In this document: one piece after another, positions 29,465 to 64,000 of the stretch
Layout: every line of letters starts with the position of its first letter
Numbering within the stretch: position 1 is the first letter of the stretch
Assembly: GCA_977020255.1 (NCBI GenBank)
Contig: CDROCS010000586.1
Coordinates: 124,001 to 188,000, forward strand
Direction of reading: 5' to 3'
DNA length: 64,000 nt
Source of the DNA: Obrimoposthia wandeli
Lineage: Eukaryota
Made by a program: the position numbers and the translations under genes
The notes under the pieces: generated by a model
The model's database searches: none
What the model saw: the letters and a program-made list of their open reading frames with translations, nothing else
What the model was told of the DNA's origin: nothing

Positions 29465-30063
29465 CACCAATTCTCGCCTCCCACACGCACATGCAAACCA
29501 TCTGCATACTCTCTTTCCTCCGACACGTACCGTCAAGCCCCTTCATCAATTGACATCGTTTTTCACGACAAAGAGCAACTGCCATGGTATACGCTTGCCC
29601 GATGCCTAGAAACTTTGGGCTTTGTTGAGTTAGCATCTTCATCTGAAATGACAGCTTCTTGATGTGCTTCTAGAGCTCGCAGAGGTTTTGCCTCTTCTTG
29701 GTCGTTGTCGCCTCTGTACATAGGTTGTGACTCCATCGTGCCGTGTAAATAGACTTTGATGCTTCTCTGTGATGTAATGCCCGTCTACACATGCCCGCAC
29801 TCGCGCCCGCAGTCGCCTGCTGTCCGTATTTCTGTCCCCAGTCGGTCGACCTGGCCCCACATTGCCACCTGGTCTGCACTGCCATGTCATACTGTCTACC
29901 GCCTGAGACTTGCTAACCTGACCGAGCTAGCCTGTATTTGTGACTGCTCCCCCTCCCCATCTCCCCAGACTGCGTTGTCAGATTTCCGATTGGGGTTCCG
30001 ATATATGACCAATATCAAAAGTCGACTTGAGTGCTTTCTAATTTGACGCGCATCGTTTAGATT

Positions 30064-44950: not shown

Positions 44951-46519
44951 CTGAAATTTTTACAACAGTAGCCTAACCTCAATATTTTGTACAATTTAAA
45001 AAAAACTTTAATATTTTTTATCGTGGAATTGACATATTTAGAGTCAGTTTTGAGAATGCAAATAGCGTAAATATGAACGAGTTAAAATTTAATTTTGTAC
45101 CATATTTTCAATCATTTACTTATCCAATTAATTTCAAAAATGTTCCTAATTGATCAGCAAAATCGACCGATAGTTTAAAAATATTAATTATTCTTATGCA
45201 ATTCTTTAATTTGTGAATAAATTTTAGACGATGATCTTATCTGGCAATCTGAACTATACTAGAATGCAAGGCTGAGTACATTTCTATGGTAATTTAAATG
45301 TCAATTCATTAAACTTCAGATATATTTATATGCACTAAAAAGTTGTACGCTGATGAACTAAAAATAACTTTAAGGTATATATGAGTTCCAATTGAATAAG
45401 GTAAATTTTTAAAAATCGCACTAAATGGATATTTGCTCTTGAACAAATATAAATGTAAGAAGCTTTGTCGAGTATCAAAGTATCTCTTGAGAAATAAAAA
45501 GCTGTGACGGACTACCCCAAGATTTGAAAGAAAATATGAACAAGCTTTTGCAGTGACTTTCATAATGTGGTGAGGTGAAGATGTGTCAGCTCAAGTGGAT
45601 TCATAAACCTTATTTGGTCCGCCAACCTGATGAACCTTTAGGTCATTTGATTAAACCAGAAAAAAGACGGTCAATGACAGATGTCCACTGGTTAGTAAGG
45701 CTAATTGACTACCGACTGAGCTAGCATAAGTTATATCTATTTTGACTAACTCCTTTTCCAATTAAATATTTTTTATTGTATGTACTTTTAAAGATTATTC
45801 AGGTTTTATCCGGGAAAATAAGTTTTTGTACTTCACCGGGATTAGCCGTCCCAGTCATAGTCCTCGTTCTTGTCAAAATACATTTGCTGCACTCGATTAT
45901 AGAGTACGATTAAAAGGTGAGGTATTGAAGCATATCAAAATTAGTGATTTTTCCCGATTTTTTCTCTCTCTGTTTTAAATGTAAAATTAAGCAAAGTGAA
46001 ATCGGTGACTTTATCAAAAAGTAAAACACGTTAAAAATATATTTTGGGTAAGTTGACCCTTTGTAACACACAAAAGGAATAATAGGAACATTACAACGAG
46101 AGTAAATTTTTGTGGATTTAGTGTGGATTAATTGAAAAGTTAATTTGGTTTAATTTAAATAAAAGTAACGAATAAAACATTTTTCACAAACTTTTATTAT
46201 GCATAATTTTATCTTGATTTTTAATGCTGTTGTTTACTTGATGAACTTGTTCGGCCCATTGCCTTTGGGGAATTTTATTTCCTTAATATATTTCACAATT
46301 TTTATTTATCTGAAATTGTCGGAATATTCTTTTTTTCATCTCATGGTTTTATTTATTACACTTTATGATATTTAAACATATTTATTGATAATTCAAGAAA
46401 TATTAAAAATTGTTAGGTTAATTTTAAACAAATATGATTCAAAAAATTTCATATAATATTGGTATTTACATTATAGAGGTACTGCTGTATTACACTAACC
46501 AAGATGGAAGTAATATATA

Positions 46520-47817
46520 CAGGGTGCGGAGAAAGTTCCCGATCGAATTTTGAAAATTGAATTAAAGATATTATTATTTAACTAAATTTATCCATTTTTG
46601 GCTTATTTTGTTTGTAGATACATATATTTATATGTTTCAGATCCAAATTTCCAAAAATTTAATTTGCATTTGTTTAAAATGAGTAAACGTGAGGCCATTA
46701 TCCAACTTCATTGCATGGGAAAGACGAACCCATAGATTGTTAAGATCTTAAAAGCTCCAAAATCAACAGTTCGGGATGCAGTAAACCGATACAAAGAACT
46801 TGGGACATCAGACGATCGTCCCAGAAGTGGACGCCCCGAACTGCTCGCACCTCAGCCAAAATAAAGGCCGTTAGGGAGCGAATAAGGAGGAACCCCAAAC
46901 GAAGAATGAAGAAAATGGCCAAGGACTTCAAAGTTGACGAAAAAACTGTCAGAACAATTGTCAAAGATGATCTCAAGTTATCCCCTTTCAAGATGACTAA
47001 CAGACAACAACTGACGGAATTGCAAAAACAGAAGAGGGTCGAAAGAGTCAAGATTCTCCTGAACCGAAAGAAGGATGGCACGGATGCTGGGGTAATTGTC
47101 TTTTCTGATGAAAAAATGTTCACTGTTGAGGCTCAGTTCAACTCGCAGAACGACAGAATTTTAGCTAAGAGTGCTGATAGCATTCCCAGTTCGGTAAAAT
47201 CCGTTTACCGTCGCCAAAAACCTAGCTCGGTAATGGTATGGGCAGCCATCTCTGAGAATTGGAGATCCTCTCTCATTTTTGTTAAAGATGGTGCTAAAGT
47301 TAACGCAAACTCGTACATCCAGGATATTTTGACTCCAGCCCATGTTGAAATGAAGAAACATTTCAAAAATGACCCTTTCACATTCCAACAGGACGGTGCG
47401 CCATCTCACACTGCGAACAAAACTCAGGACTGGTGTGAGAATCACCTTCCAGCTTTCTGGAGGAAGGAATTGTGGCCTCCTTCATCACCTGACTTGAACC
47501 CTCTGGACTTTTGTGTCTGGTCCATCTTGGAGAGAGAGGCCTGTGCTACAGCCCATGATAATACAGAAGCTTTGAAGAAGTCTCTTAAGCGGGAATGGGC
47601 CAAAATTCCCCAGGAATCCTTTCGTGCCGCAGTGAAGAGCTTCAGGGGGAGACTTGAGCGTGTAATTGAAGCCAAAGGCGGCCACATTGAAAAATAGATA
47701 GTATAAATGTTAAATAGAGCTCTAACAAATTGTGTGTGTTATTTTTTGTTTAATTTCAACCTTTATTAGTTGTTAAATTTAACGTTTTATGAGATCGGGG
47801 ACTTTCTCCGCACCCTG
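46520..47817 (+). mobile_element. Full-length Tc1/mariner maT (DD37D) transposon
   Basis: 25-bp TIRs CAGGGTGCGGAGAAAGT(T/C)CCCGATC with one mismatch; TA TSDs at 46518-19 and 47818-19. Confidence 0.93.
46679..47697 (+). pseudogene. maT transposase, disrupted at the 5' end
   Basis: ATG at 46679, TAG at 46733 and a frameshift near 46838. Intact FSDEK, QQDGAPSH and SSPDLNPLD, with 37 residues between the 2nd and 3rd Asp. Confidence 0.88.
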
Positions 47818-50214
47818 TATATATATAAGCTGATTTATGTGTTTTGAGAAGTCAAAATTTCAATAAATAGCATCTTATTTTTTGTAGTATAATCCTGCTA
47901 ATAAATTTTGATAATTTTATTAAACATGTTAAGTTAAAAATATATTAAGTTGGTCTATGAGAAGGTCTAAACAAATTCACTATATAGTTTATATGTGTTT
48001 TGATGAGAAAGGTTGACTTGTACGAAATAAATGAGCCACTAACCTGATTCAACTATAATGAAAACAGCTCCAACGTGTAATTAAAAGTAGTTTTTGAGCA
48101 TAATTTTAAAGGATTCGCGCACAAAAGTGACATGTTAGGCTGACATTTTCTTCAATTATCTACAATTATTTATTGATACAAAGACAGTCAAAAAGCTTGT
48201 CAAATATAAATTTTAGTTATCTCATATTTTGTTGCAAATTCCTCACATTTTAAATTATTATGTTAAATCTATTGAAATGTAATGATTAATTAAAATAGAA
48301 CAGTCATTTATAAAAACGGAATAATTTTTACTGATTCTGTATCTAGTCGGTTTTACACAGATTCGCGGATATTACTAGTTTAATCTGGATTCTGAATTAC
48401 ATGCTTTGAAGAGAACGATGTTTAATAGCTTTTTATTCGAATTATTTCGATTTTAACTATTTTCTGTACATTTTACATACATTTTATCCCTGTGTTAGAG
48501 GCCAATCAATGGAATCAAAAAAGAATTCCGAGGAAAAACCATTCCACAGAATGCTATATTTCAGCTAAGGAAAGAAATCTAAACAAACTTTCAACTTGAT
48601 CAGTACATCTTATAAAGCTCACCATCCCAATTAATCTAATAATAAAAACTTGAGCAACATTTTAGTTTTTCAAAGTGATATCGGATATTCTGGAAAAAGG
48701 TTTTTGTTACAGAATTGTCCAAATTTCTGGTCGTGTTAACTCGTGTAGAAATATCTCTCTACGTACTACGCCTATTTTGTATAACTTTAAAATACATGTC
48801 AAGGAAGGCCGTAACAACTTATTTGCAAAGTTTCATTTAAACCTCACAGTTATGTTTTGAGAAAAATCTTCTTTTAAATCCTGTCTGTATATCGGCGTTC
48901 ATATGAAATTTCATTATGTATTAGAGATTTACAGTTTTTTATGAAAACTTTTTTCGCAATAAATGACATTTTTAATATTACAAAATATTTTTAAAAAAAA
49001 CATAGATTTTAGTACACATTTAAAAGTTAAAAGACATTTAACAATTTTGTAATAGAAATGTGAAGTTTCAATTTAGGATAAGTAATATAAAGTCAAAAAA
49101 CTTACTTTAAAAATTCTAATTCCTAATTCTTGATAGTCCTTGTCTAAGGCAAAATTTCGAAATAAACCAAATCTAAATAAGTTTTTTAACTAACCGAATT
49201 CGATAATTAAAAAGTGTTACGTAATTCATTTCAATTATTGTCTGTGTTGTATCTTATCTGAATTGTAAAAATAAAATGAGTCAAGATCAATATTATCAAA
49301 TTTCAGTTATTAATAATTTTAACTTTGACATTAAACCATGACTTCAACATAAAATAAATGCAAACTTTCGGTTTTTGTATTTAGTTTCAGGCACTTTATG
49401 TTAATTTAGCTGTTTGGTAAAAAAAGTAATCTGAGAAAATGAAGAAAATTAGCAATTGAATAAATTTTCAATTGTACAGTCAGTTTCACTTAAAAATGTA
49501 AAGTATTCCTTAAAATAATTACTTTAAATTTATTTATTATCTCATATTTTGTTTGTAATTTCTACATTAATAGACTGACAAAGGAACATTCCGAAATGCT
49601 CATCTCTGAATCATGTTAATATTATTTTAAATACATTATGAGCCATTAAAATAGTAAAAGGAAGGTTTCAAAAAATCTGCTAAGATTTTTAATACATTAT
49701 TCTTATTTAAAATATTATTTCTTCTTTCTTCAAGTAAATTATAAAATCTAATAAACGTTTTTTAACGACATTTTAAATATTATACCTCGTCATAAATTGA
49801 AAAATAAACAAAAAAGATATCAAAACTGCAAAAATAATTTTTTATTCACATCTTCTGTCAAAGCAGCAGATTGCTTCATAATGTCTATTTTAGATCACAC
49901 GTTGAATTAAATTGATGGCCATATTTGTGAACATGGTTTTGACACATGGTGGTACATTATTTGAGCAAATAACTCGTTTTCATTCACTGATTTTAATGCC
50001 TCCATCTGCAACAAATTCAGATTATTTTCACTATTTAGCCGGTTGCTTTCGATGAATTGCGGCTCTGATTTTTTACTGCCACATGTCGCACCCATATCAT
50101 TAATGAACCTCCAGCAGATTGACGTCGACTTCTAGTTAGTGGCTCTTTCCTAAGATCGTTACATCACACCTTCAAGCTATTTTGTGAACACAACTCCTTG
50201 AACACACCACAAAA

Positions 50215-50372
50215 ACAATAAGACACAAAACCTTCAGATTGAGACTAGAATTAAGTATGACACAAACAGGTAGGCCACATCCATCTGTAAGCCCTATCGC
50301 TACAGAATTCACGTTGGGGGCCTCGATACGAGGATCTACTTAATTAAAGAGTTTCAAATAGAAACCCCAACA
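50215..50372 (+). mobile_element. U5 end of the 5' LTR of a decayed Ty3/gypsy-type element (element H); LTR start not resolved
   Basis: Ends ...TAGAAACCCCAACA and is followed by a PBS. Homologous to the ends of the two inserted LTRs (ACCTTCAGAT, TAGGCCAC, CACGTTGGGG, GAGGATCT blocks). Confidence 0.75.
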
Positions 50373-50380
50373 TATTAAAT

Positions 50381-50398
50381 TGGTGCCCCGAGTGAGGA
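50381..50398 (+). promoter_or_regulatory. Primer binding site, 18 nt, probably tRNA-Thr
   Basis: TGGTGCCCCGAGTGAGGA is the complement of TC-CTCAC-TCGGGGC-A-CCA, i.e. tRNA positions 59-76 with the invariant C61. A GTGAG/CTCAC T-stem is typical of tRNA-Thr as I recall. It sits 8 nt after the LTR end. Confidence 0.8.
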
Positions 50399-50529
50399 AA
50401 GCTCGTCGGACACAGCGAATTCACATAGAATAAAACAGCGAATTGAGAATAAGTTATAGAAGAAGAATAAGAAAAGATAAGTTAATTGAGATTAATAATT
50501 TTAATAAGTAAGTAAATCGAATAAATTTG

Positions 50530-50805
50530 TAAATCGAGTTGATAAGTTTCTCGAAGTAATTAATTTAAATAAGTGTTTAAATCGAGTTGATCCTCGAAGT
50601 AAGTAATTTGAATAAGTTTGTAAATCGAGTTGATCCGTTCCTCGAAGTAAGTAATTTGAATAAGTTTATAAATCGAGTTGATAAGTTCCCCAAAGTAAGT
50701 AATTTGAATAAATTTCGTAAATCATGTTGTTAAGTTCCTCAAAGAGATAAATTGAATAAGTTTAATAAATCGAGTAGATAAGTTCTCCAAAGAGATAAAT
50801 TGAGA
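50530..50805. repeat. ~48-bp tandem repeat (~6 diverged copies) in the 5' leader of element H
   Basis: AAATCG anchors at 50531, 50579, 50622, 50670, 50719, 50767. Confidence 0.8.
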
Positions 50806-52157
50806 GAGAAATTCATAAAATAATAGTTGAGAAATAAGAGATAAAAGTAATAAATAAATAGAAGTCGTAAGAAGTAAGCAATTACATACTTGATAAGACG
50901 ACGGTTAGTCAAATAGAACTCACGTTTAAATTTGAATTAGTTTTGAATTTTAGTTTTGAATTGACTGACTTGTTTGGTGAAGTAAACCAAGAAGAAATTG
51001 AAGTTATTGAAGTTGCGAATCAAGGAGATATTGAAATTGCAAATTCAGAGAAAATTAAGGAAATTGATTTGAAGAATTTTGAAGAAATAGTTGAAAATAT
51101 GGCTAACGCAAATAATAATGCAGAAAATAATGTAGATAATATTAATACAGAACAGTTGGCACAAGTTTTGAATGCGACGTTTAAACCCAACTTTACCGGA
51201 TCTCTGCAGATCGCAAAGTTTAAAGGAGACGAGGAAAGTATTTTGTGACTTCCTGGCGGAATATTCGAGTTGCGCAGATGTGCAAGGATAGAACGAAAGA
51301 GAAAAATGTGTCCGCGTACATGCGCATTTGACAGGATTAGCACTTAAAGTGTATAAACACATAATAAAAGCAGAACGTGAAGATTAGGAAACATTGGAAA
51401 AATGCTTTTATAGGAAAATTGGTGTTGTAAGATTTAGCAAACGTGAATAAACGAATTTTGAGAGAACATAAATAGAAACATAACAAGAGAGTGAATGAAT
51501 ACATGAATGCATCTGTTGGGGTTTCTATACGAAACTTGGTATAGATCCTCTTGAATGCGGAGGGCCCCAACGTGAGTTCGATTAGAAGCAGGTCTTAAAG
51601 TTGGTCGTGGCCTACTTAGTTTTATGGTTGCCTAATCTCTTGTACTATCTGAAGGTATTTGATTTGATGTCTCTTATTCTGAAGGGTGCAAAAACAACTT
51701 GTTCTAATGTAGGAAATTGTTTATTTGTAATTCACGAACTAAAACACAACAATACGTTTATGTACGTATTTTCTAAAAAGTATAGTAAAAATTCCTAAGA
51801 CTTCTGTAAGTCTCTACAACAAGTGGGGATGAACCACGTATCGATTTTATGTTAAGGGTGATCGAGTTTTTAGAGTCGTTCCTCTAACTCGCGAATAAGC
51901 TCAAGTTAAGATTTTCAATTTAATGTGACTCTTATGTCAAACTCTAACTTTAATTCCCAATTTAACTTTAATGGCAAACTTTTATCTTTATACCAAAACT
52001 ATGGCAATTTAGACAAAACTTCTCTTCAAACTTTTATGTCAATTTAGACAAAAACTTCTCTTCAAACTTTTATGTCAATTTAGACAAAAACTTCTCTTCA
52101 AACTTTTATGTCAATTTAGACAAATTAGACAAATTGTAATGTCAACTTTATGACAAT

Positions 52158-52408
52158 TTTAAAGGAAAAAACTTCTTTTATTTACTTCAAATTCTGTCCA
52201 ACTTTATAATGACTTTAAGGGAAAAAACTTCTTTTATTTACTTCAAATTCTGTCCAACTTTATGATAACTTTAAGGGAAAAAACTTCTTTTATTTACTTC
52301 AAATTCTGTCCAACTTTATGATAACTTTAAGGGAAAAAACTTCTTTTATTTACTTCAAATTCTGTCCAACTTTATGATAACTTTAAGGGAAAAAACTTCT
52401 TTTATTTA
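52158..52408. repeat. 56-bp tandem array (~4.5 copies) inside the solo LTR; preceded by ~3 copies of the 35/36-bp unit (52009-52125)
   Basis: TTTAAGGGAAAAAACTTC anchors at 52158, 52214, 52270, 52326, 52382. Confidence 0.9.
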
Positions 52409-52705
52409 TCTTCGTCGCGTCTCACCTATTTGAACCGATGGATATATGTTGGATTGTCTGCGCGAGCACGAGTTGTCCGGAGAATCACGGTCTGAGCGAG
52501 TACGATTTGTCTGCTAGCGATCTCTCCTTAGCTGGTTAGGTTCCTCGCTGTAGCTCGGCGGGGATAAATTTGATCGTCTCGCTGTGGCTCGGTGGGGATT
52601 CCTGATTCGATCCGCTGTGTGGATTGTAGAGTTGGCTGGAGATACTGCTCACTGTATAATAGTTTGCTCTATCTGATTAGAGACTGCTCGTCTAGCTTGG
52701 GTTTT

Positions 52706-52915
52706 GAGAGCGATCTGATTAGAGAGTTGCCGATTTCTAGCTTGTGTTTTGAGAGCGATCTGATTAGAGAGTTGCCGATTTTAGCTTGTGTTTTGAGAGC
52801 GATCTGATTAGAGAGTTGCCGATTTCTAGCTTGTGTTTTGAGAGCGATCTGATTAGAGAGTTGCCGATTTCTAGCTTGTGTTTTGAGAGCGATCTGATTA
52901 GAGAGTTGCCGATTG
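52706..52915. repeat. 45-bp tandem array (~5 copies) inside the solo LTR
   Basis: Unit GAGAGCGATCTGATTAGAGAGTTGCCGATTTCTAGCTTGTGTTTT. Confidence 0.9.
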
Positions 52916-53879
52916 CTTTTTTCCCGTTCTGTTGCTGGATTATCAATTATTACTCAATTGTATGAGTTCTTACCGGAGTTTCTTCTTTGCTCGGATATGC
53001 GTCTGTCGCAACAATGATTTCCCTTTTCTTTTTTGTGTAGTCGGTGTGTTGGTGACTTATATAGTCAATTTCCAATCAGCAATGTCGGGCAGCTGAAATA
53101 TATTTCCTGAGCCCTGAGCGTAATTCCTGACAGCTGAAAAATTCAATTAATTCACGGCACGAAAATGTGCTTACCGTTTCCTTGATTGACGTTTTTCTTT
53201 CTGCTGACGTTAGCAGATTCTAAATTATTCCCGTTTTGCTTTTGCTTAGTTAGTTTGTTGCACTTTTGGGTTAATTAATTTAACTTATATATATCTTACA
53301 CTATACACGACCTTCGTGGTCCTCCTAATTTTTACCCTAAATTCCACTAATTTCAATTCTAAAACTAAAATTATTATTTTAATTTAATTTTCAACCTTGC
53401 TTTCAAGGATTTTTTATTTTAGTATTTAATCGAAAAAATATTTAAATTTCTTAATTCTCAAACCTAACACATCCAAGAAAAATATTGAGAACTCCTGCTG
53501 GCGAACCTGTAGCAGCAGCTGTACAATTAATAGAAGATAATCTGAATCAAGGCGAAATGGCAGAGGTACTGTTAGATATATTTAGAGGTGAACTGTAAAA
53601 AGATACTAAAGTATTATTGTCAGTATCAAATATAAATGGTTTTGACAACACCGTGCGAAAGGCGAGAGAAATTGAGTAGAATATAAAGAATAATGTAGCG
53701 TTAGCAATTTACGTAGTGATGACAAATGATGATGATAAGACAAAGGTTTTTGTAAATAAGACAGAACCAAGTAATTTTCAAAATCAGAATTATGGACAAA
53801 AAGAGTCTAGAGACATAAATAAGTTCGAGAAAAGAAATGAATTTAGTAATGAAAATAAAGGTAGAAATAGCGACGATTT

Positions 53880-54700
53880 GAGAAATAAGGAAATCATAAG
53901 AACTAAGTTGGCATTAGCTATTACGAATCCAGACATGGTGGCACCACTATTGCTTCTAGACGAAGAAATATTTGCTAAATCAATGGGATAAGTAATGTAT
54001 ACGTACAGGGATAAAAAAGTACTGGTAAAATTGAGAGAAACAACTCGATGTACAAGTGAATTACCAGTAACATATAACTTAAAACCACTTTTTGTAGAAC
54101 CAATATCAAGGATGATACTTCCTATTGACACTCCATCTAAGGAGATAAGTTGCTCTAATATAATGGCACCTGAATATAGATTATTGAGAGACTTATGGAT
54201 AATATTACCTGACCGTAAGCGAACAGGAACTCCAGAGAGAATAAAAATGACGACACCCTAAGAAAAATGGAGTTCAAAGCTGTAACGAATATTGAAAGTG
54301 CAGGTTTATATAATTAGAAAAATCTAAAAGCGGCCTGGAATGAAATAATGTTTCCAGTAAGAAGGGCCAGAGTACTAACGGAAATGGTACATCGTGCATT
54401 ACCACCAAGAGCTACATATGCGAATTTTGATATGATATTGTCGGCAAGTCATTTCAAGGAAGTGGCACATCAGACACTTAGGAAAATGTGGGGAAAATTC
54501 TTTGTATTAAGACAATTTTTAAAGTATAATAGGAATTTTTGATATAATTATATTTGTACAGGTAATTATAGCTCAGGTGTTGTCCACATATAGTTTGTAC
54601 AGGATAACTGGAATCACCTGGCAGCTTATAATTGGATATTTTTTCTATTTCTAGCAAAATATCTAATGCACCATCGTCACGAAAATGAATTGCGAGCTCT
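53880..54700 (+). pseudogene. env: C-terminal half of a chuvirus-like (class III, gB-like) envelope glycoprotein
   Basis: KLALAITNPD...G*VMY...VKLRETTRCTSELPVTYN...FVEPISRMI...EISCS..APEY...IMFPVRRARVL...MWGKF, then hydrophobic IGIFDIIIFVQVIIAQVLSTYSLYRITGITWQL. Motif order matches chuvirus-type G from memory; stops and frameshifts present. Confidence 0.7.
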
Positions 54701-55033
54701 CAAGAAGGAGCAACATCAAACTAGAACTAGAACCGTCGAGACGACAATGACGACGATAATGATAGTTTGGGAGACTATGCGAAGATACCAAAAACAGGGC
54801 ATCCAAAAATTCCACTGTAAAACAAGGAAGAACCAGTACCAAATCTTTATCCAATGAAGAAACTAAAGGAAGAAAAAGAAAAGTTCAAAAGAGGAATTTT
54901 AATGATAAGATGGCCTAGAGTGAACTATAATAAGCTTCTATAGGAAAAAGAGAAAAAAGATAATTCCAGAAGAATTCTGAAGTCTAGGATATCTAATGAG
55001 AATCCGAATGCTCCACCACAAGTAGCAGTAACA

Positions 55034-55330
55034 ATGAACGGAAGAGAATATATTTCCGAGGTCGATACTGGATCTGCAGTATCAGTACTGAGTAAAGAAA
55101 TCTTGTCATCAAAAGAACTAGAAAAAGTGTGTCATAGGAAAAAAACATTTGTCAACGTAAATAGAACATATGTAGTATCAGAAGGAATACTGAAATGTAA
55201 ATTAACTATTGATGGAAGAGAACTGCTGCTAAATGCAAGAATATTCACCTATTGTGGTAGTCCAGTCATGATTGGAATGGATGTGATACGAATGTTCGAA
55301 GGAATAATAATATTAATAAACAACAAGAGT
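55034..55330 (+). pseudogene. Retropepsin (A2 aspartic protease) of element H
   Basis: VTMNGREYISEVDTGSAVSVLS and VMIGMDVI motifs. Confidence 0.85.
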
Positions 55331-56619
55331 ACTAAGAACAACAATTCAGTGAGAGAGATAAAGATGCTGGGAAGACCTATGAATGAAGGAAAAGACATAA
55401 CTAGTTTCAAGATAGAAAACTCGTACCGAAACAAGACATAGGAAGTGCTAGTGAATTCGATACTTCACTACAAAGGAGTAAATAGCGGACACAAGTGATC
55501 TTTATTGATTGCTTCTTTTTAGAGAGGTTGGATAAAAGGAAGAGAGAAACTAGTCCACAGAAAAGGAAAATTACTCAGTTGTTGTTGGTTGTAAAATCGT
55601 CAAGCGTGAAAAGAATCCCAGTCGACACAAATATTCAGAAGTAAATCTAGGTAAGAACCCCTTAGTTAAGTAGCGTCTATTTAATGTCTACTTTCTAAAA
55701 AAATTAGAGAAGAAGAAAAGGTGGTGAATTATCTATTATCGAGAAAATCGTATAAAAGGAAAATTATACAAGAAGAAATTGACTGACTCTTTCTAGGAAA
55801 TTATAGAAGAAAATTGCTTGACTCTAAAATTCGAAACAAGCAAACATCTCTCTAAAAAGGTAAGCAAAGGACGCAAACCAAAACCACTAAAATAATCAAG
55901 AAACTTTCACAGAATACTCATTGCGACAGAAGGCAATCGGATCGGCCAAATTTGAGGAGGAGTCGTGACAAGGATATCTAGACGCCGGAATCTCAACGGA
56001 AGAGAATCCTGGACTCTGTAGACCTACCGGAAAGTTAATCATCATATTTAGAGAGATGTGAGTTGTTGTGGAAAAGATATCTTTAGAATTGTTGTTCACA
56101 CAAGTGATTTGTAATTTTTATCATTTTGTTGGGGTTTCTATACGAAACTTGGTACAGATCCTCTTGAGTGCGGAGGGCCCCAACGTGAGTTCGATTAGAA
56201 GCAGGTCTTAAAGTTGGTCGTGGCCTACTTAGTGTTATGGTTGCCTATCTCTTGTACTATCTGAAGGTATTTGATTTGATGTCTCTTATTCTGAAGGGTG
56301 CAAAAACAACTTGTTCTAATGTAGGAAATTGTTTATTTGTAATTCACGAAACTAAAACACAACAATACGTTTATGTACGTATTTTCTAAAAAGTATAGTA
56401 AAAATTCCTAAGACTTCTGTAAGTCTCTACAACAAGTGGGGATGAACCACGTATCGATTTTATGTTAAGGGTGATCGAGTTTTTAGAGTCGTTCCTCTAA
56501 CTCGCGAATAAGCTCAAGTTATAGATTTTCAAATTACTGTGACTTTTATGTCAAACTCTAACTTTAATTCCCAATTTAACTTTAATGGTAAACTTTTATC
56601 TTTATACCAAAACTATGGC

Positions 56620-57365
56620 AATTTAGACAAAACTTCTCTTCAAACTTTTATGGCAATTTAGACAAAAACTTCTCTTCAAACTTTTATGGCAATTTAGACA
56701 AAAACTTCTCTTCAAACTTTTATGGCAATTTAGACAAAAACTTCTCTTCAAACTTTTATGGCAATTTAGACAAAAACTTCTCTTCAAACTTTTATGGCAA
56801 TTTAGACAAAAACTTCTCTTCAAACTTTTATGGCAATTTAGACAAAAACTTCTCTTCAAACTTTTATGGCAATTTAGACAAAAACTTCTCTTCAAACTTT
56901 TATGGCAATTTTAGACAAAACTTCTCTTCAAACTTTTATGGCAATTTAGACAAAAACTTCTCTTCAAACTTTTATGTCAATTTAGACAAAACTTCTCTTC
57001 AAACTTTTATGGCAATTTAGACAAAAACTTCTCTTCAAACTTTTATGTCAATTTAGACAAAACTTCTCTTCAAACTTTTATGGCAATTTAGACAAAAACT
57101 TCTCTTCAAACTTTTATGGCAATTTAGACAAAAACTTCTCTTCAAACTTTTATGGCAATTTAGACAAAAACTTCTCTTCAAACTTTTATGGCAATTTAGA
57201 CAAAAACTTCTCTTCAAACTTTTATGTCAATTTAGACAAAACTTCTCTTCAAACTTTTATGGCAATTTAGACAAAAACTTCTCTTCAAACTTTTATGGCA
57301 ATTTAGACAAAAACTTCTCTTCAAACTTTTATGGCAATTTAGACAAAAACTTCTCTTCAAACTTT
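56620..57365. repeat. 35/36-bp tandem array (~21 copies) inside the 3' LTR
   Basis: Unit TTTAGACAAAA(A)CTTCTCTTCAAACTTTTATG(G/T)CAA. Confidence 0.95.
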
Positions 57366-57366
57366 A

Positions 57367-57620
57367 TGACAACTTTAGGACAATTTAGACAATTTTAGTG
57401 TCAAACTTTATGACAACTTTAGGACAATTTAGACAATTTTAGTGTCAAACTTTATGACAACTTTAGGACAATTTAGACAATTTTAGTGTCAAACTTTATG
57501 ACAACTTTAGGACAATTTAGACAATTTTAGTGTCAAACTTTATGACAACTTTAGGACAATTTAGACAATTTTAGTGTCAAACTTTATGACAACTTTAGGA
57601 CAATTGAGACAAATTTTAGT
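57367..57620. repeat. 44-bp tandem array (~5.6 copies) inside the 3' LTR
   Basis: TGACAACTTTAGGACAATTTAGACAATTTTAGTGTCAAACTTTA at 57367, 57411, 57455, 57499, 57543, 57587. Confidence 0.95.
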
Positions 57621-58755
57621 AATCTCTCTTACGTTTTTTGTCTCGAGGTTGAGATATCCTGAAGCGTTCCGGAATATACTGAGATCGAACACAAAAACCG
57701 ATCGGCTGACTGAATTTGAATTGCCGAATGAAAATTCGCTGATATAGTGCTGACTGGAACAACAATTGAACTGGTTCACAAGCTCTGCTCCGTGATAGAT
57801 CGAGTTCGGTTGAATAGAATCGATTTGTATGTCGCTGTTACGACGTTGCCCAAATCCGTGATAGATTGATCTTTAAGTCTTGTGTGACGAAACGTGAGAA
57901 TTTCCCAATCAGTTAGTTTGCTAAATCAATAATTAAATCTCCAAGTCTATCACAAAACCACCTGGTTGCTGCTAGGGACAATGTTGGTTTTCCTTGGTTT
58001 TTTGTGGTCTATTTCTCGGTAGATTGGGATATTGCTTTTTCCGGTTGTGTATTTCGTTTTCTTGTCGACGACTTTTATAGTCGATTCTGCAACTCCTGTC
58101 TGTCAGTCAGCAATGTCGACAGCGGTTTCAACTGGAGTCTTTTGCGGCAGCTGAAAATTAAGTTTAAACACTCCAATTTAACTGCACGAAAATGTGCTTA
58201 CCTTGATTGACGTTCGATTTTGATTGACGTTCGATATTGTTCCCTTTTTTCTTCTTTGCTTAGTTAATGTGTCTTTTTGTTGCACTTTTGGGTTAATTAA
58301 TCTAACTTTTATACATTTCACATTATACACGACCTTCGTGGTCCTCCTAATTTTTACCCTAAATTCCACTAATTTCAATTCTAAAACTAAAATTAATATT
58401 TAATTTAATTTTCAACCTTGCCCTCAAGGATTTTCATTTTAGTATTTAATCGACTAAAATATTTAAATTTCTTAATTCTCAAACCTAACATACCTCGGGG
58501 GTTCCAAAAAAGTTACGTCCCCGGAACGTATCGATTTTACTTAAACAAGCCTCTGGCTGTTGATTTTAGGTTCATCCCTACAAAATCAATCATTCAACTT
58601 CAACAAACATGCCCAAAACAAAATTTCTCAAAATCCCGGTTTTTAGTGGGAAACATAATGTATAATTTGGAGCAAGTCTCAGACTATACATTATTATCTA
58701 TACACAAAACTACATGCATAACCAAGGATTAGGAAGGAAAGAAGGGAGGAAAGGG

Positions 58756-59286
58756 TCAATTGTCATAAGTTAGGTCAATTGTAATTGTCGGCTGGTTCCG
58801 ACTGGCCAGGTAGCGCAGAACCTGCTCCAGGGGTAGGTCGGGAAAGGACGGACTGTCCCCGTTGTACAGGTGTAGTTGTTGGCTCCGGGTTAGGTGTGGG
58901 CTCTCGACAAACAGGTCGAAATACTGCCCGTTCATCGCGTGATTTTCTATCCAGAGACGTCTGGCCTGGAACCACGAGTGGCAGTCTCGACTAGACCGCC
59001 ATCTCTCGCGGATGCCCAGTTGTGTGTCGCGCCGGCGTGCGAGACATACGTAGCATTGGCAATGTATGCCACCAATGCAGCTGGCAGGCGATCGGGTGCC
59101 CTTGTGCCTTCCACGGCTCTGGAGCGTCCATTTGCCAAAGGGTGTCCGGCACAGTGGACATGTGATATGGCCGGGGGGTCGAGCCTTGGCCCACAAATAG
59201 AGGCACTCCTCGTGGAATTTGTGACGGCAGCCGACAGGGGATGCTGATACCGCCCAAATCTTCTCCATGCATACAGAGCACTTCAT
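58756..59286 (-). CDS. RING-H2 E3 ligase-like ORF C (RING + C-x5-CxC-x2-C + C-terminal SIM-like ITIDLT)
   Basis: CSVC-x13-CRHKFHEEC-LYLW...CPLC; acceptor ttattttcttatgcag directly abuts the ATG at 59286. Confidence 0.88.
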   Translation of the reverse strand: MKCSVCMEKIWAVSASPVGCRHKFHEECLYLWAKARPPGHITCPLCRTPFGKWTLQSRGRHKGTRSPASCIGGIHCQCYVCLARRRDTQLGIRERWRSSRDCHSWFQARRLWIENHAMNGQYFDLFVESPHLTRSQQLHLYNGDSPSFPDLPLEQVLRYLASRNQPTITIDLTYDN

Positions 59287-59626
59287 CTGCATAAGAAAAT
59301 AACTCCTTTCAATTTGGGGTTCACCGTTCTCATCGTTAATTTAAATTTTATTTCAAAACGAATCCTTAGTTATCTAATCCTACCGAGTTTTGTTTCGATT
59401 TTAGGCATGTTTACGCATTCACACTAAGCATAAAAAATTGTCTTTTTAGAAATTCAGTATAATAATTACAATTTCAGTTAAACATCATACATAAAAATGG
59501 TAATGGTCAATTTACAGTTCACAAGATTATATAATTATGATTACAATTATGGTAGCTAATTTATCGCGGTATGCGATACACAGGGTAGTTCATGATGTCA
59601 CGTTCAAGTCAGAAAGTTACCTTCGA

Positions 59627-59932
59627 TTATTGTTGGGAATTGGGCTGGCCTGTGCTTCGCTCCTCCACGCAGAACGAGCACCAGCAATCGCAGATGGTTT
59701 TCCAGCAGTGTACGATGGGTACCACTGCTTGGAGGCTGTCTTGGTTGTACACGTAGTGTACTGAGAAGGTCGCTCTGCACATCGGGCAGGTTGGGAAGTC
59801 GAGGGGATTGTTGCTGTTTGCGATGGGGATCCACGTCTCGAGGCATTCGACGTGGAAAAGGTGGTCGCAGTTGTTGGGCTTGGTGTAGAAGTCCACGATG
59901 CCCTCGTAGCAGATGGAACATTCTCCAGACAT
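59627..59932 (-). CDS. RING-H2 E3 ligase-like ORF B (RING + C-x6-CWC-x2-C)
   Basis: CSIC-x13-CDHLFHVEC-LETW...CPMC; acceptor ccctcccacag 2 nt before the ATG. Confidence 0.88.
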   Translation of the reverse strand: MSGECSICYEGIVDFYTKPNNCDHLFHVECLETWIPIANSNNPLDFPTCPMCRATFSVHYVYNQDSLQAVVPIVHCWKTICDCWCSFCVEERSTGQPNSQQ

Positions 59933-59992
59933 TACTGTGGGAGGGTTGATGTTGAATTTGGGCTCGATTGAGGACTGGTGGTTGTGTGATGT

Positions 59993-60292
59993 TTACACAA
60001 AAGTGGTCTGATTTTGTCGATCTGACAAACAGTAATAACACCAACACTCTCCGAAATTCTTCCAACAGAATACCACCTGTACATATACATCTTCTTGGTT
60101 GGTTTCTAACATGATGAATCTTGCGAATTGTCTTCTGCATACAGGGCAACAAGGGTATGTTGGATGTCCGAACTGTCCATAAGTTCTGATCCATGTCGAT
60201 AAACATTCCTCGTGGTGTAAATGGTTGCAGGTTTCGGGTCTTGTTCTTCGTTCGGTTAGATCTTCCAAACATATTGGGCATTCTTCGGACAT
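59993..60292 (-). CDS. RING-H2 E3 ligase-like ORF A (RING + C-x6-CWC-x2-C)
   Basis: MSEECPIC-x13-CNHLHHEEC-LSTW...CPVC; acceptor tgtatttag 1 nt before the ATG at 60292. Confidence 0.88.
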   Translation of the reverse strand: MSEECPICLEDLTERRTRPETCNHLHHEECLSTWIRTYGQFGHPTYPCCPVCRRQFARFIMLETNQEDVYVQVVFCWKNFGECWCYYCLSDRQNQTTFV

Positions 60293-60415
60293 TCTAAATA
60301 CATGATGATGATTAATTTCTACATGAGTTTTATATATTTCTACTATTTGTACAATCACTTCTAGATATTTCTACATATTTCACACACTAATTTATCTACA
60401 ACCTCCTCTGACTCA

Positions 60416-63400
60416 TCATATCTTGATGGGAGGCGGAGGTAAGGGTCGCAATTCCACTTCCTCCATGGTGGGTGTGTCACAGCATCGCAATCCTTCGCAT
60501 TTTCGTCGTATTCCTGGGCATACTTGACTGCCTTTTACGCACACGATTGTCAATAAAACCACTGCTGTTGACACTACGGCCATTCCAATTAGGGCATTGA
60601 CCGCTGTTATTCCGCTGTCTGATGATTTATAATCGTACTTCATTTTGTTGTTTGTCGGTTCGAATGACATTTCCATGGGTTTTGATCGGTTTCCATGTAT
60701 TATGTCCGATTTTCTAAAAATTCGGGGATTTGGGTGTTTTGTTTCTGATGGAACAGGTATTATTATTTTGGATTGGAAATGATGTTTGGGATCTAGTGGG
60801 ATCGTTCCCTGCACTCTTGTCCTCTTATTAATTGTACTTTTGTTTCTGGGATTTAGCTCTTTTTCTTTCGCTTCTGTCTTTGTTCTGATCACTGTCTGGT
60901 TTTTGGAATGGCGTTTACTTTCGATTACCTTTGCCTTCTTTTTGACTAGGATTGGTCTTTTGGGAATGATTTTCCTGGGTTTGATACTTATACCGGATTT
61001 ACGAAATCGACGGTTCTGGTATCTTAGAGTTATGTAGAATATTTCACCTGTTATTATCATGATTATGGTCGAGGTCTCTGTAGTATTACTGGCAATTCGA
61101 TTACACAGACATTCTGTGTTAAAATGTGGTACTAACATTTGGCTTTGGATTTCGAATCTGATTCCGCCATCTGGGTTGGGACACATTACTGTCACCCTGT
61201 CAGTTTCTAACAATCTGAAAAATATTCTAACGGAATTCCATACGGTTTTACGTCGTCTGCCTGTGATCATAATCCTGTCGACAATTTTCCAGATGCGCTC
61301 ATCTCTAGGCAATATTAATGACTTTGTTCGGATACTTTGGATAATCCGCTTCCTCTTTGATATTGTTATCCGTAGGTATAACACTCTTTCATGATACAAT
61401 AATATTAAATTGTAAACGGGTGTATTTTGGTCGATTTTTATTCTGACCTGTCGGATGACATACAATTTCTGATCGATATTGTCAGTTGCTGACGTCTGTA
61501 GATGAATGTCTACTACGTGATTTGTTTTTAGTAGGGGGATTTCTATGTATACTGCCCGTATTACGTCTTGTCTCCATTTACTGATCATGATCTCATAACT
61601 AGCCTTGGTAGTGGTGATTTGTATGATCAGCATGATTCCTATGATCGTTCGATTCCTAAACTCAGGAACTTCAATGAAACAAGTCAAATTACTCATATAG
61701 TACGGTCTTTCCTCGATGTGTTCATATATCGTTGGCTGGTATTCTGGTGCTGGTTCATCTAGAAATGGTGGACTTGGTATAATTGTGTTGAAATTTTGTA
61801 AGTTCATTTGACCTGTTCGTCTTGCGAGATCATGCCGTTTCTTTTTTGATCTCAACTCTAACTTTGTACAACAAAACAAGATGAGCAATATTAATATTAT
61901 AAATCCAATGATCAGTGCGAGTATTGGATTAACCAATTCTAGAATACCGTAACGTACTGCTGGTATTCCTTTACTCTTGATGGTTAATATTTTAAATTTG
62001 TGTGCACTTTGGTTGGACATGTCACTGAGAAGCACTATTTTAGTTTGTCCAAATATGTAGTCTTCACATGTGACAACACTAACTCCATAATGTCCATTAA
62101 GTGTTATCATTTCGGTCGCTGGGACTATACACATTCGTCCTGGACATCCTTTTACACACATGATCATCACGGCTCTACTGTGGGATGTCTTGATTATTTC
62201 TAGGGTGTTGTCTAGATTTCTCAAATGTAAATTATATTCGGATAGTGTCATCAATTCGGCTTTACTGGTTGGCATGGCTTGCAGTACCAATCCAATTACT
62301 ACTCCATAGATCAATCCTTGTACAACGGTGCACAGGGCCTTGACCGACCTTTTGCAAAGGGTTTTAATTATCAATCGTTTGAGAGATATCTGTTTCTGAT
62401 TGGATCGTTTTGTTGTCTGTCGTTGTTTTGACATCTCCTCGATTCCATCTCTTCCGATAATCAACTGTACCGGTTTACCTTGTATCATCAACTTTCCGAA
62501 TCCATTTTTGGCGGACAAGCATGTTTTATGTCCTTCCATCGTTTCAATTATCACTCTCTTACTTCCATACTCACGTGTTTTGATGACATCGCCGTCGAAT
62601 ATATACGTTGGTCCTTTTGTATCAGCATCTTTTTGTATTTCCTTTACAACTCGTTTTCTTCGCTTGCATCCGGCGAATGTTGTTGATATTTGGTCAAGTG
62701 TGCGTTGTCGGTCAGCTTCGTAATCTATCCGAAATTGATTCAGTATTCTGTTTTGTGGGTAAAATATCGCTTCATTTACTATGTTGTCTTCGATCCTTTC
62801 GTCTAGATACACAAGCACTTTGTTCGTTGGTCCATTTGGTCTTTTCATCTTTACAAACTGAAATCTTTTACTGTCGGTTCTCATAGATCGAAGACATTTT
62901 CGGATGATCCACACATCAATTAGTCCTAACAATACTAATAACATCATCAGTGCCGGCGTATGGTACTGTATGGTGTAGTTGTGGATTTCGTTGAACCAGG
63001 AACTATTTCCGTGGTTGGAGCCTATCTCCTGTGCTCCCGTTATCGGCATTAAACAACTTAACAAGCCTATCGCTAGCAATCTTTGGTATTGAAAGCTGGG
63101 CACTGTTGTTGTAGCTTCATTTGTTTCTCGTTGTTGTTTCCTCTTTTCGGTGTATTTCTCTATTTCTCGAACGAGTAACGGTTTGAATTCCGTATTTGGT
63201 CTATTCTGTTTGATGTAGACCATCGCTTCCTCTGGCGTGTGACCATGGTACTCTACCAACAAGGATACACCTATGGTAGGCGCTAACATTGTACCTTTTT
63301 TCTGATATATCAGAACGCCGTTTCCTTCTGTGACTTCGGCTTGGATGGTTTGAGTCAATTTCGTCAGATGTTGTTGTGCATCGTTTATTTCTCGATTGGA

Positions 63401-64000
63401 AGCATGTATGTATCGAGTGGTGTCATCTTCAGTATTTTGACACAGACTAATTATCTCGTTTCCGACTTCAACAATGTTGATTACTCGGTTGATACTGTGG
63501 AACTTTAATCCAGCAGTATCTATATCTCCTGGATGACATAAAAATACTTTTGGCATTATCTGTGTAATTTTATCGACTCCGGCTAAAAATAACCCGGTTA
63601 ATGATAATGCTTGGAGGAAATTCTTTTCCTTTGGGTCCTCAGGAATGTCGTCCATCCGTCTTTGTTCTTGCAACAGAAGTTGGTAATTTGCCAACTGTCC
63701 CAAAAAATTAAGATTTGGGTTTGCAATACTTCTTCTCTCCTGTAGGTATTTTAGCGCTTCTAGTACCTGCATTCGTCTAGTCTTTATTAGGTATGCTAAT
63801 ACTAGAGTTGCTGATCGAGAAATTCCTTTCTGACAATGTACCAACACTTTTCCTCGGTTCCGGAGTTCTCTGTGAAGTATTTCGTTTGTTTCTACGAACC
63901 ATTCGAGAAGATTAGCGTCCATTGAGTCTTTTACTCTTAATGTCATAGCTCTGATTGTCTGATATTGTGATTTGTGATTCATTGTAACGTTGATCACGTA
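60416..64000 (-). CDS. C-terminal >1193 aa of a retroelement-borne polyprotein: dual-specificity phosphatase, pseudo-phosphatase, three signal peptide/TM modules; open past the window edge
   Basis: Uninterrupted frame (TAC at 64000-63998 is in frame). VHCQKGISRSATLVLAYL at 63838-63812; a second DSP fold at aa ~144-283; alternating signal-like and TM segments. Lies between the window edge and the 3' LTR. Confidence 0.9.
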   Translation of the reverse strand, partial: YVINVTMNHKSQYQTIRAMTLRVKDSMDANLLEWFVETNEILHRELRNRGKVLVHCQKGISRSATLVLAYLIKTRRMQVLEALKYLQERRSIANPNLNFLGQLANYQLLLQEQRRMDDIPEDPKEKNFLQALSLTGLFLAGVDKITQIMPKVFLCHPGDIDTAGLKFHSINRVINIVEVGNEIISLCQNTEDDTTRYIHASNREINDAQQHLTKLTQTIQAEVTEGNGVLIYQKKGTMLAPTIGVSLLVEYHGHTPEEAMVYIKQNRPNTEFKPLLVREIEKYTEKRKQQRETNEATTTVPSFQYQRLLAIGLLSCLMPITGAQEIGSNHGNSSWFNEIHNYTIQYHTPALMMLLVLLGLIDVWIIRKCLRSMRTDSKRFQFVKMKRPNGPTNKVLVYLDERIEDNIVNEAIFYPQNRILNQFRIDYEADRQRTLDQISTTFAGCKRRKRVVKEIQKDADTKGPTYIFDGDVIKTREYGSKRVIIETMEGHKTCLSAKNGFGKLMIQGKPVQLIIGRDGIEEMSKQRQTTKRSNQKQISLKRLIIKTLCKRSVKALCTVVQGLIYGVVIGLVLQAMPTSKAELMTLSEYNLHLRNLDNTLEIIKTSHSRAVMIMCVKGCPGRMCIVPATEMITLNGHYGVSVVTCEDYIFGQTKIVLLSDMSNQSAHKFKILTIKSKGIPAVRYGILELVNPILALIIGFIILILLILFCCTKLELRSKKKRHDLARRTGQMNLQNFNTIIPSPPFLDEPAPEYQPTIYEHIEERPYYMSNLTCFIEVPEFRNRTIIGIMLIIQITTTKASYEIMISKWRQDVIRAVYIEIPLLKTNHVVDIHLQTSATDNIDQKLYVIRQVRIKIDQNTPVYNLILLYHERVLYLRITISKRKRIIQSIRTKSLILPRDERIWKIVDRIMITGRRRKTVWNSVRIFFRLLETDRVTVMCPNPDGGIRFEIQSQMLVPHFNTECLCNRIASNTTETSTIIMIITGEIFYITLRYQNRRFRKSGISIKPRKIIPKRPILVKKKAKVIESKRHSKNQTVIRTKTEAKEKELNPRNKSTINKRTRVQGTIPLDPKHHFQSKIIIPVPSETKHPNPRIFRKSDIIHGNRSKPMEMSFEPTNNKMKYDYKSSDSGITAVNALIGMAVVSTAVVLLTIVCVKGSQVCPGIRRKCEGLRCCDTPTMEEVELRPLPPPPIKI

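Follow-up and report, generated by a model that had tools for sequence, protein, structure and literature searches.

Three RING-H2 genes with a shared four-cysteine tail are carried inside an LTR retroelement of Obrimoposthia wandeli

Introduction

Burro elements are giant Ty3/gypsy retroelements of planarians in which env, a mononegavirus-like fusion protein, precedes the protease and whose polyproteins carry a SUMO-like domain (PMC6431247); the same gag-env-pol order is also seen in flatworm, nematode and bryozoan elements (PMC13524379). Burro1, a planarian long terminal repeat (LTR) element, encodes a protein combining a RING and a BIR domain for which a host function in stem-cell survival has been reported (PMC13465017), and Burro expression is under PIWI control (PMC8532177). 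In this study we analyse a 64 000-nt stretch of Obrimoposthia wandeli DNA (GenBank assembly GCA_977020255.1, contig CDROCS010000586.1, positions 124 001 to 188 000 of the forward strand; hereafter the window, numbered from its first letter) in which three open reading frames (ORFs A, B and C) within an LTR element encode small RING-H2 proteins that share a C-x5/6-C-x-C-x2-C tail.

Compact zinc sites built around CxCxxC have been described in viral proteins. In small t of simian virus 40 (SV40) the site has been solved (Cys103 and Cys111-116, the fourth cysteine lying eight residues upstream), and the second zinc motif of the protein forms its PP2A-binding surface (PMC1945078). In E27 of rat cytomegalovirus (RCMV) a zinc site made of C273, C275, C278 and H332 is structural, anchors a protrusion and is needed for DDB1 binding (PMC9975947), and the CxCxxC motif of murine cytomegalovirus (MCMV) pM27, also present in the V protein of simian virus 5 (SV5), is required for co-precipitation of DDB1 (PMC3116810).

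The three RING genes described here are cargo internal to an LTR retroelement. To judge from their sequences, it is reasonably likely that they serve the element as accessory ubiquitin ligases (E3s), made from their own processed RNAs and acting on host proteins.

Results

The RING genes lie inside an LTR retroelement

ORFs A, B and C are flanked on one side by the 3' LTR and on the other by a long ORF that ends just ahead of them, a placement like that of the accessory genes of complex retroviruses (Table 1). That they are borne by the element, as the sequence-only reading held, is established by their location: they lie on the inner side of an LTR that runs TG...CA, and a related copy with a target-site duplication fixes the ends of this LTR. 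This solo LTR is 98% identical to the 3' LTR over 613 nt on the R/U5 side and 84% identical over 330 nt at the far end, while the middles are unrelated; the two carry different tandem arrays (36, 44, 45 and 56 nt) and represent mosaic LTR subfamilies. Both were inserted into a decayed plus-strand element in which env, a Monjiviricetes-type fusion protein, precedes the protease (PF24664, E 1e-11 at 53992-54258, ahead of the aspartyl protease). The LTR of this decayed element that ends at 50372 shares terminal sequence with the LTR of the RING-bearing element and is followed by a TGG motif resembling a primer-binding site (PBS), and we therefore read the RING-bearing element on the minus strand, with 56127-58490 as its 3' LTR. 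The window ends 7.9 kb into this element, leaving 5.5 kb of internal sequence visible. A pure pyrimidine run of 25 nt (58731-58755, minus strand) stands immediately past the stop of ORF C. The GC content of the whole window, 32.7%, is compatible with a planarian host. Searches for tRNA and Rfam families returned no match.

ORFs A, B and C encode probable RING-type E3 ligases

All three RING-H2 ORFs are present on the minus strand, intact and intronless, and each passes the Pfam zf-RING_2 cut-off of 27.3 bits (A 37.5, B 36.6, C 31.2 bits). When the three proteins are aligned, neither the eight RING ligands (C3H2C3) nor the four tail cysteines vary. The RING spacing had been called identical but is not fully so, since 18, 18 and 14 residues separate the sixth ligand from the seventh in A, B and C, respectively. 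The x13 loop is not diagnostic: of 201 domains in the RING-H2 hits, 85 have it, more than have any other spacing. The proline that follows the seventh ligand is an E2-contact residue in RING domains, and it is kept in all three ORFs together with the other contact residues (the loop-1 Ile/Val and the helix Trp) and the linchpin Arg. Roles of such E2-contact and linchpin residues are described for ORF61 of varicella-zoster virus (VZV; bioRxiv 10.64898/2026.03.11.710994). On this sequence pattern A, B and C are very probably E3 ligases. No further RING copy was found in the window, and the 95-aa extension of ORF C belongs to no known family.

An AlphaFold model was made for ORF B, with 32 RING hits added to the alignment. 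It has a mean predicted local confidence (pLDDT) of 86 and shows a RING followed by a beta-hairpin (strands 58-63 and 66-72), with pLDDT above 90 up to residue 70. Its fold matches in the PDB are generic RING and U-box chains with Z scores up to 7.0-7.5 (for example 4ap4: Z 6.6, root-mean-square deviation 1.7, 55 aligned residues). Among the predicted viral proteins of BFVD there are 14 matches at E <= 0.001, the best being baculovirus PE38 (E 7e-5, TM 0.66, 96 columns); they include CG30, IE2, RINGs of iridoviruses and giant viruses and one ICP0-family protein, with further ICP0s and poxvirus p28 just below the threshold. The nearest language-model neighbours of ORF B in the atlas are also small viral RINGs (0.94).

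None of the three proteins is present in a 15-billion-protein collection by exact look-up, a word-index search with ORF B gave no candidate, and phage genomes gave no match. A HMMER search of 1.84 billion representatives with a three-sequence profile returned 3918 hits at E <= 0.001, of which the best 150 were inspected. A small RING-like protein, P0091 (96 aa, from a 32-member cluster), shares with ORF A 38% identity along 53 aa, the R-P-E-x-C and the post-RING pattern, but is devoid of the cysteine tail.

The cysteine tail probably forms a third zinc site

Translated in six frames, the whole window contains three instances of the tail motif and no more, one in each ORF. In shuffled post-RING tails the motif arises at frequencies of 3.5e-4 (A), 1.8e-3 (B) and 1.4e-4 (C). 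Each of the three ORFs combines CxCxxC with a fourth conserved ligand. Since this combination is a zinc site in both SV40 small t and RCMV E27, we consider it likely, by analogy, that the four tail cysteines bind zinc as well. What the sequence-only reading had termed a second zinc site would then be the third, the RING already holding two.

The same reading had described the motif as unrecognised and had not known the architecture from cellular RING-H2 families. The bare CxCxxC zinc motif is in fact familiar from the viral proteins introduced above; the RING plus four-cysteine (C4) tail architecture, on the other hand, was found in none of the libraries covered (Pfam, NCBIfam, PHROGs, the PDB and the best 150 of the 3918 hits), a search that left eukaryotic genomes and transposable-element libraries outside its range. 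Within those best 150 hits no C-x4-7-C-x-C-x2-C or CxCxxC occurs in the 60 aa past a RING, and a profile of the tail alone scores at most 6.6 bits against them. Used alone, with queries of 28-47 residues, the tail has no significant match in Pfam, NCBIfam or the PDB (phmmer); against PHROGs it reaches only E >= 0.023, and its language-model neighbours in the atlas (0.82) stay at the level of leads. This blank is weak evidence, because no near-identical copies were returned, suggesting that the element family is missing from the library. In the literature no RING-H2 protein with a C-x5/6-C-x-C-x2-C motif and no triple RING cassette in an LTR element was found described, among sources that did not cover the primary Burro papers and supplements, which may annotate such ORFs. 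The thyroglobulin type-1 repeat, retrieved by a PDB profile search of the tail (1icf, C-x6-CWC), was rejected as non-significant (E 0.24). This repeat is moreover a disulfide-bonded extracellular fold, a further reason against the match.

The tail may be a structural or activating appendage of otherwise active E3s, packed against the RING and stabilising either it or the E2~ubiquitin complex, with no part in substrate choice, a reading that we regard as credible though distinctly short of even. It has precedents in 5dka, the RNF125 C2HC finger essential for activity, and 5h7r, the flanking fingers of LNX1, both PDB fold matches of ORF B whose roles are taken from the entry titles, and in the structural, protrusion-anchoring site of RCMV E27 (PMC9975947); the tail is also only 13 residues long and starts 23 residues past the last RING cysteine in A, B and C alike. 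Conversely, A and B, at 99-101 aa, offer hardly any other part for substrate binding, the second zinc motif of small t is itself a partner-binding surface (PMC1945078), and the RING and hairpin of ORF B are modelled with high confidence without any help from the tail. Substrate contact and structural support are about equally likely as roles of the tail, and that either tail or hairpin chooses the substrate is a tentative proposal.

A and B are paralogues, and the origin of C is less certain

The three proteins are strongly diverged, as had been noticed from the sequence: A and B are 38% identical over 93 aa, A and C 28% over 94 and B and C 30% over 96, with no significant similarity among them at the DNA level. 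Given that twelve metal ligands are kept at this degree of divergence in ORFs that are all intact, long purifying selection is indicated.

A and B align without gaps, and every test gives each of them the other as its best match. In leave-one-out profile searches, in which the competitors were top hits from the 1.84 billion proteins picked with a profile that included A, B and C, A and B each rank first of 151 on the full length, on the RING alone and on the post-RING part, whereas C ranks 31st on the full length, 44th on the RING alone and second on the post-RING part (4.3 bits). A maximum-likelihood tree of 44 rows does not join A, B and C, nor do any of 200 bootstrap trees (0%), yet a single A+B+C clade is not rejected (p-AU 0.29); the branching order of RING trees is poorly supported. 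By their sequences A and B are clear paralogues, and the case for C as a paralogue of either is weaker. The proposal of three tandem paralogues is thus strongly upheld for one pair and weakly for the third member.

As to how the array arose, the sequence-only reading had favoured an old tandem duplication within a putative TE-specific E3 family; the unrejected single clade is compatible with such a duplication. A contrast in composition leaves room for serial acquisition. As had been remarked, B and C (54% and 57% GC) are richer in GC than the long ORF (39%) and A (41%), and GC at third codon positions (GC3) reaches 75% in B and 65% in C, while A has 39% and the long ORF 38%; the spacers are AT-rich, with the exception of that between A and B. 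Because GC3 differs between A and B/C, it is admissible that related RING genes were acquired one after another by template switching, B and C from a GC-rich donor. The separation of the three in the tree, the low rank of C against the A+B profile and the U3 side of the two LTRs, itself mosaic, speak for such a history, which we nevertheless hold to be rather unlikely: A and B are mutual, gapless best matches despite their unlike GC3, which shows that GC3 does not track relatedness here, one clade is statistically acceptable, and no outside protein with the tail occurs among the best 150 hits. Duplication and serial acquisition are both compatible with one ancestral RING plus C4 gene.

Candidate splice acceptors and an overlapping frame

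A splice-acceptor-like YAG (Y, pyrimidine) ends 0-2 nt before a start codon in each of the three ORFs. Across the window 153 of 2235 ATGs have a YAG so placed, and within the element 10 of 119 do; with the choice of ATG allowed for, the joint chance of this pattern is approximately 6e-4. The YAGs of B and C are two of only four, among the 166 in the element, that are preceded by 8/10 pyrimidines. Such sites would explain how the downstream ORFs come to be translated, because they permit alternative cis-splicing or spliced-leader (SL) trans-splicing, the latter resolving operons in flatworms including relatives of S. mediterranea (PMC12582326). From the sequence, expression of the ORFs from separately spliced RNAs has the better of the odds.

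A and B lie in one frame, and between them (59933-59995) stand the stop of A and 20 open codons with B-like GC3; read-through from A to B, or an older fusion, is possible. A frame of 225 codons overlaps both genes. Counting any of five alternative frames, 5e-4 of synonymous shuffles are open in this way, and no stops are seen where 6.7 are expected. Such stop depletion is absent from the long ORF and from a Tc1 transposase and partial in C (3 versus 5.8). The frame has no family match, and its sequence makes an overprinted gene possible.

A SUMO-interacting-like motif at the end of ORF C

ORF C ends in ITIDLT followed by an acidic residue two positions on (ITIDLTYDN). We take the [VI]DLT class to be SUMO-interacting motifs (SIMs), and on that assumption call the motif SIM-like. 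The pattern [VI]DLT is found in 0.3% of tail shuffles, in none of the best 150 RING hits and three times in 127,996 six-frame residues. ORF C, and perhaps A and B, could accordingly be imagined as a SUMO-targeted ubiquitin ligase, an analogue of ICP0 that clears SUMOylated silencing proteins from the chromatin of the element. ICP0 and ORF61 pair an N-terminal RING with SIMs, and ICP0 is a SIM-dependent ligase (PMC3174244, PMC8430037, bioRxiv 10.64898/2026.03.11.710994); ICP0-type proteins are among the fold matches of ORF B, and Burro polyproteins contain a SUMO-like domain (PMC6431247). We consider this reading improbable all the same, as the motif is single, short and noticed post hoc, while known SUMO-targeted ligases use several SIMs (PMC8430037), and as the V-x-V/I-V cores of A and B (residues 71-74) coincide in part with a predicted hairpin strand or lie next to it and are of a common kind (16 in the long ORF).

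The long upstream ORF and other features of the window

Upstream of A runs an ORF of 1194 codons, called the polyprotein by the sequence-only reading. It is open at the window edge, and no link to gag-pol is visible. Its dual-specificity phosphatase (DSP) matches are animal proteins. The second DSP-like domain has YQKKGTM in place of the catalytic loop and is devoid of the catalytic Cys. Beyond DSP no family match was found for the long ORF, and its residues 300-1194 have no match among proteins of 2091-5000 aa. Signal-peptide-like segments (307-321, 559-578 and 785-798) are each followed by a transmembrane helix (348-367, 688-716 and 1133-1158), and past the second helix there are cytoplasmic TIYEHI and PAPEY motifs; the architecture is viral-polyprotein-like.

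Elsewhere in the window, an apparently intact Tc1/mariner-type transposon (46513-47824) has inverted repeats of 32 nt and a DDE transposase frame of 317 codons. A further element, 1.9 kb long (11219-13124), has inverted arms of 182 nt, and there are tandem arrays of 98 and 109 nt (13829-14319 and 22263-22631). Against a background of 30% GC, one isolated island of 1 kb (29000-30000) stands out with 50-60%; it contains several open frames and gave neither a family match nor a second copy. Ser/Pro-rich open frames at 17450-23234 on the plus strand resemble exons of a host gene and have no Pfam match.

Table 1. Coordinates of the RING cassette and of the surrounding features, in positions of the window
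Feature	Position	Strand	Remarks
ORF A	59993-60292	minus	99 aa; RING-H2 60137-60280, then hairpin region; C-x6-C-x-C-x2-C tail 60029-60067
ORF B	59627-59932	minus	101 aa; RING-H2 59777-59920; C-x6-C-x-C-x2-C tail 59669-59707
ORF B, predicted beta-hairpin	59717-59761	minus	residues 58-72
ORF C	58756-59292	minus	178 aa (176 aa from second ATG, 59286); RING-H2 59149-59280; C-x5-C-x-C-x2-C 59044-59079
ORF C, SIM-like ITIDLT	58768-58785	minus	residues 170-175
Acceptor-like YAG of A	60294-60296	minus	ends 1 nt before ATG of A
Acceptor-like YAG of B, with pyrimidine tract	59935-59937	minus	ends 2 nt before ATG of B
Acceptor-like YAG of C, with pyrimidine tract	59287-59289	minus	abuts second ATG of C (0 nt)
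AATAAA in B-C spacer	59347-59352	minus	only one between 58491 and 60500; possible internal polyadenylation signal
225-codon frame	59604-60281	minus	Leu/Arg/Pro/Gln-rich; overlaps A, spacer and B; ATG 11 nt past ATG of A
Long ORF	60416-64000	minus	1194 codons, open at window edge; DSP with intact HCxxGxxR, second DSP-like domain, seven hydrophobic segments
3' LTR	56127-58490	minus	2364 bp, TG...CA; internal 36- and 44-nt tandem arrays
AATAAA in 3' LTR	56332-56337	minus	about 210 nt from LTR end
Solo LTR, sister subfamily	51514-53469	minus	TG...CA, 4-bp target-site duplication; defines LTR ends
Decayed LTR element	50084-56126	plus	short LTR about 50084-50372, PBS-like site 50381, gag-like piece, Monjiviricetes-type env fragments 53992-54539, protease 54944-55438

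Discussion

In this study we have described a cassette of three diverged RING-H2 genes carried by an LTR retroelement. In the reading that we prefer, that of accessory E3 ligases acting on host proteins, each ORF would be translated from its own RNA, processed by cis-splicing or by SL trans-splicing to the acceptor before its ATG. The RING, holding two zinc ions, would bind a host E2~ubiquitin through the loop-1 Ile/Val, the helix Trp, the proline and the linchpin Arg, and would be followed by a beta-hairpin, as in viral RINGs of the ICP0/IE2/PE38 type. The four tail cysteines would hold a third zinc ion and form a small protein-contact knuckle. Diverged surfaces (the hairpin, the knuckle and, in C, the long tail with its SIM-like end) might then give each ligase host targets of its own, among which factors of silencing, defence or cell death are the most plausible; that the targets are defence-type proteins, making the ligases anti-defence factors, has in our judgement a little less than an even chance. 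The fullest version of this scenario, in which three separately spliced E3s with a RING-hairpin-C4 module, one of them SUMO-targeted, act with an overprinted gene to degrade SUMO- or PIWI-linked silencing factors, so that the element escapes repression as ICP0 lets herpesviruses do, is unlikely as a whole.

Several observations count against the accessory-ligase reading. The YAG pattern was noticed post hoc, and for C it requires the second ATG. Only one copy of the RING-bearing element is seen. No polypurine tract precedes the 3' LTR, where the minus strand has no purine run of >=10 nt at 58491-58800, and the orientation of the element consequently rests on the shared end of the PBS-bearing LTR and on the AATAAA. 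The tail of ORF B is poorly modelled (pLDDT approximately 59): it appears as a helix there and as strands in a model of pLDDT 52 made from three sequences, and the fold searches barely probe it, the PDB alignments spanning residues 1-68. The structural search of the PDB with the ORF B model returned nothing under E 1e-3, and the BFVD alignments (73-100 columns, Foldseek) reach E 7e-5 or weaker at 15-37% identity; because the viral matches are this weak and those in the PDB weaker still, the likeness to ICP0 and PE38 may reflect only a common RING and hairpin. Finally, that unit also occurs in host proteins: the cestode double-RING proteins VUZ49783.1 and KAM7536193.1 and the beetle protein CAG9762977.1 have the same P-x-x-C3 and post-RING strand pattern and a similar hairpin.

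These cestode and beetle proteins, which have no C4 tail, make cellular RINGs of their type candidate ancestors of the RING part. They would also suit the view that A-C are host gene fragments carried passively, with no role in the element. We deem this very unlikely, however, in view of the absence of any tail-bearing host protein from the best 150 of the 3918 hits and of the presence of three intact, intronless and deeply diverged copies, with an acceptor-like site by each start, while the neighbouring element has decayed. Still harder to credit is that the tail acts not as a substrate hook but as an adaptor to a host complex (DDB1/CRL4 or PP2A), for which the precedent is the need of pM27 for CxCxxC to co-precipitate DDB1 and the presence of this motif in SV5 V (PMC3116810): beyond the motif, which recurs in unrelated folds, searches with queries of 28-47 residues showed no sequence similarity of A-C to paramyxovirus V, MCMV pM27 or small t, and those proteins are devoid of a RING whereas A-C have their own.

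If the accessory-ligase reading is true, an array of tiny, separately expressed retroelement ligases would provide a direct handle on the conflict between transposons and silencing in animals. Proteins of approximately 100 aa lend themselves to expression, their substrates would identify host restriction factors, and the C4 tail would be a new compact zinc module among RING proteins. Should the tail instead be purely structural, and the element belong to a Burro family already annotated, the finding shrinks to a new domain variant.

Compared with the known systems, the element context is Burro-like, as seen here from its 3' part alone: the locus shares with Burro elements tandem-repeat LTRs, accessory ORFs and ubiquitination-related cargo, and a related neighbouring element has env before the protease. 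Burro elements are recognised by a length of over 25 kb and a single gag-env-pol polyprotein of approximately 5000 aa; of the present element 7.9 kb are visible. The B-IAP of Burro1 is a RING-containing, host-acting protein, as we propose for A-C, but A-C are three free RING-H2 genes without a BIR, adjoining a DSP/membrane ORF; the visible internal sequence contains none of the BIR, ankyrin, MATH or BCL2-like domains that Burro elements carry as cargo. Small t, E27, pM27 and V resemble A-C in having CxCxxC with one further zinc ligand, the fourth cysteine of small t being spaced by x7 versus x5 or x6 here; they have neither a RING nor detectable homology to A-C, and the likeness is probably convergent, an analogy and not homology. 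RNF125-family proteins, LNX1 and TRAF6, like A-C, have a RING with an adjacent C-terminal zinc module, but the ligand pattern and spacing of their extra fingers differ. Closest in kind are the stand-alone viral RINGs (PE38/IE2/CG30, ICP0/ORF61, poxvirus p28/N1R and those of iridoviruses and other nucleocytoplasmic large DNA viruses), which are likewise encoded by parasites and have an N-terminal RING followed by a hairpin; viral RING E3s are the best structural and language-model neighbours of ORF B, and the SIM-like motif of C also recalls ICP0 and ORF61. The RINGs of ICP0 and IE2 are C3HC4, a pattern from which A-C depart, the fifth ligand being His in all three. A-C further differ from viral RING E3s in having only 99-178 aa and in being encoded by an LTR retroelement, and the C4 tail is in no retrieved hit, the viral BFVD matches having been compared by structure only. 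RING E3s of genetic parasites are already known, as in DNA viruses.

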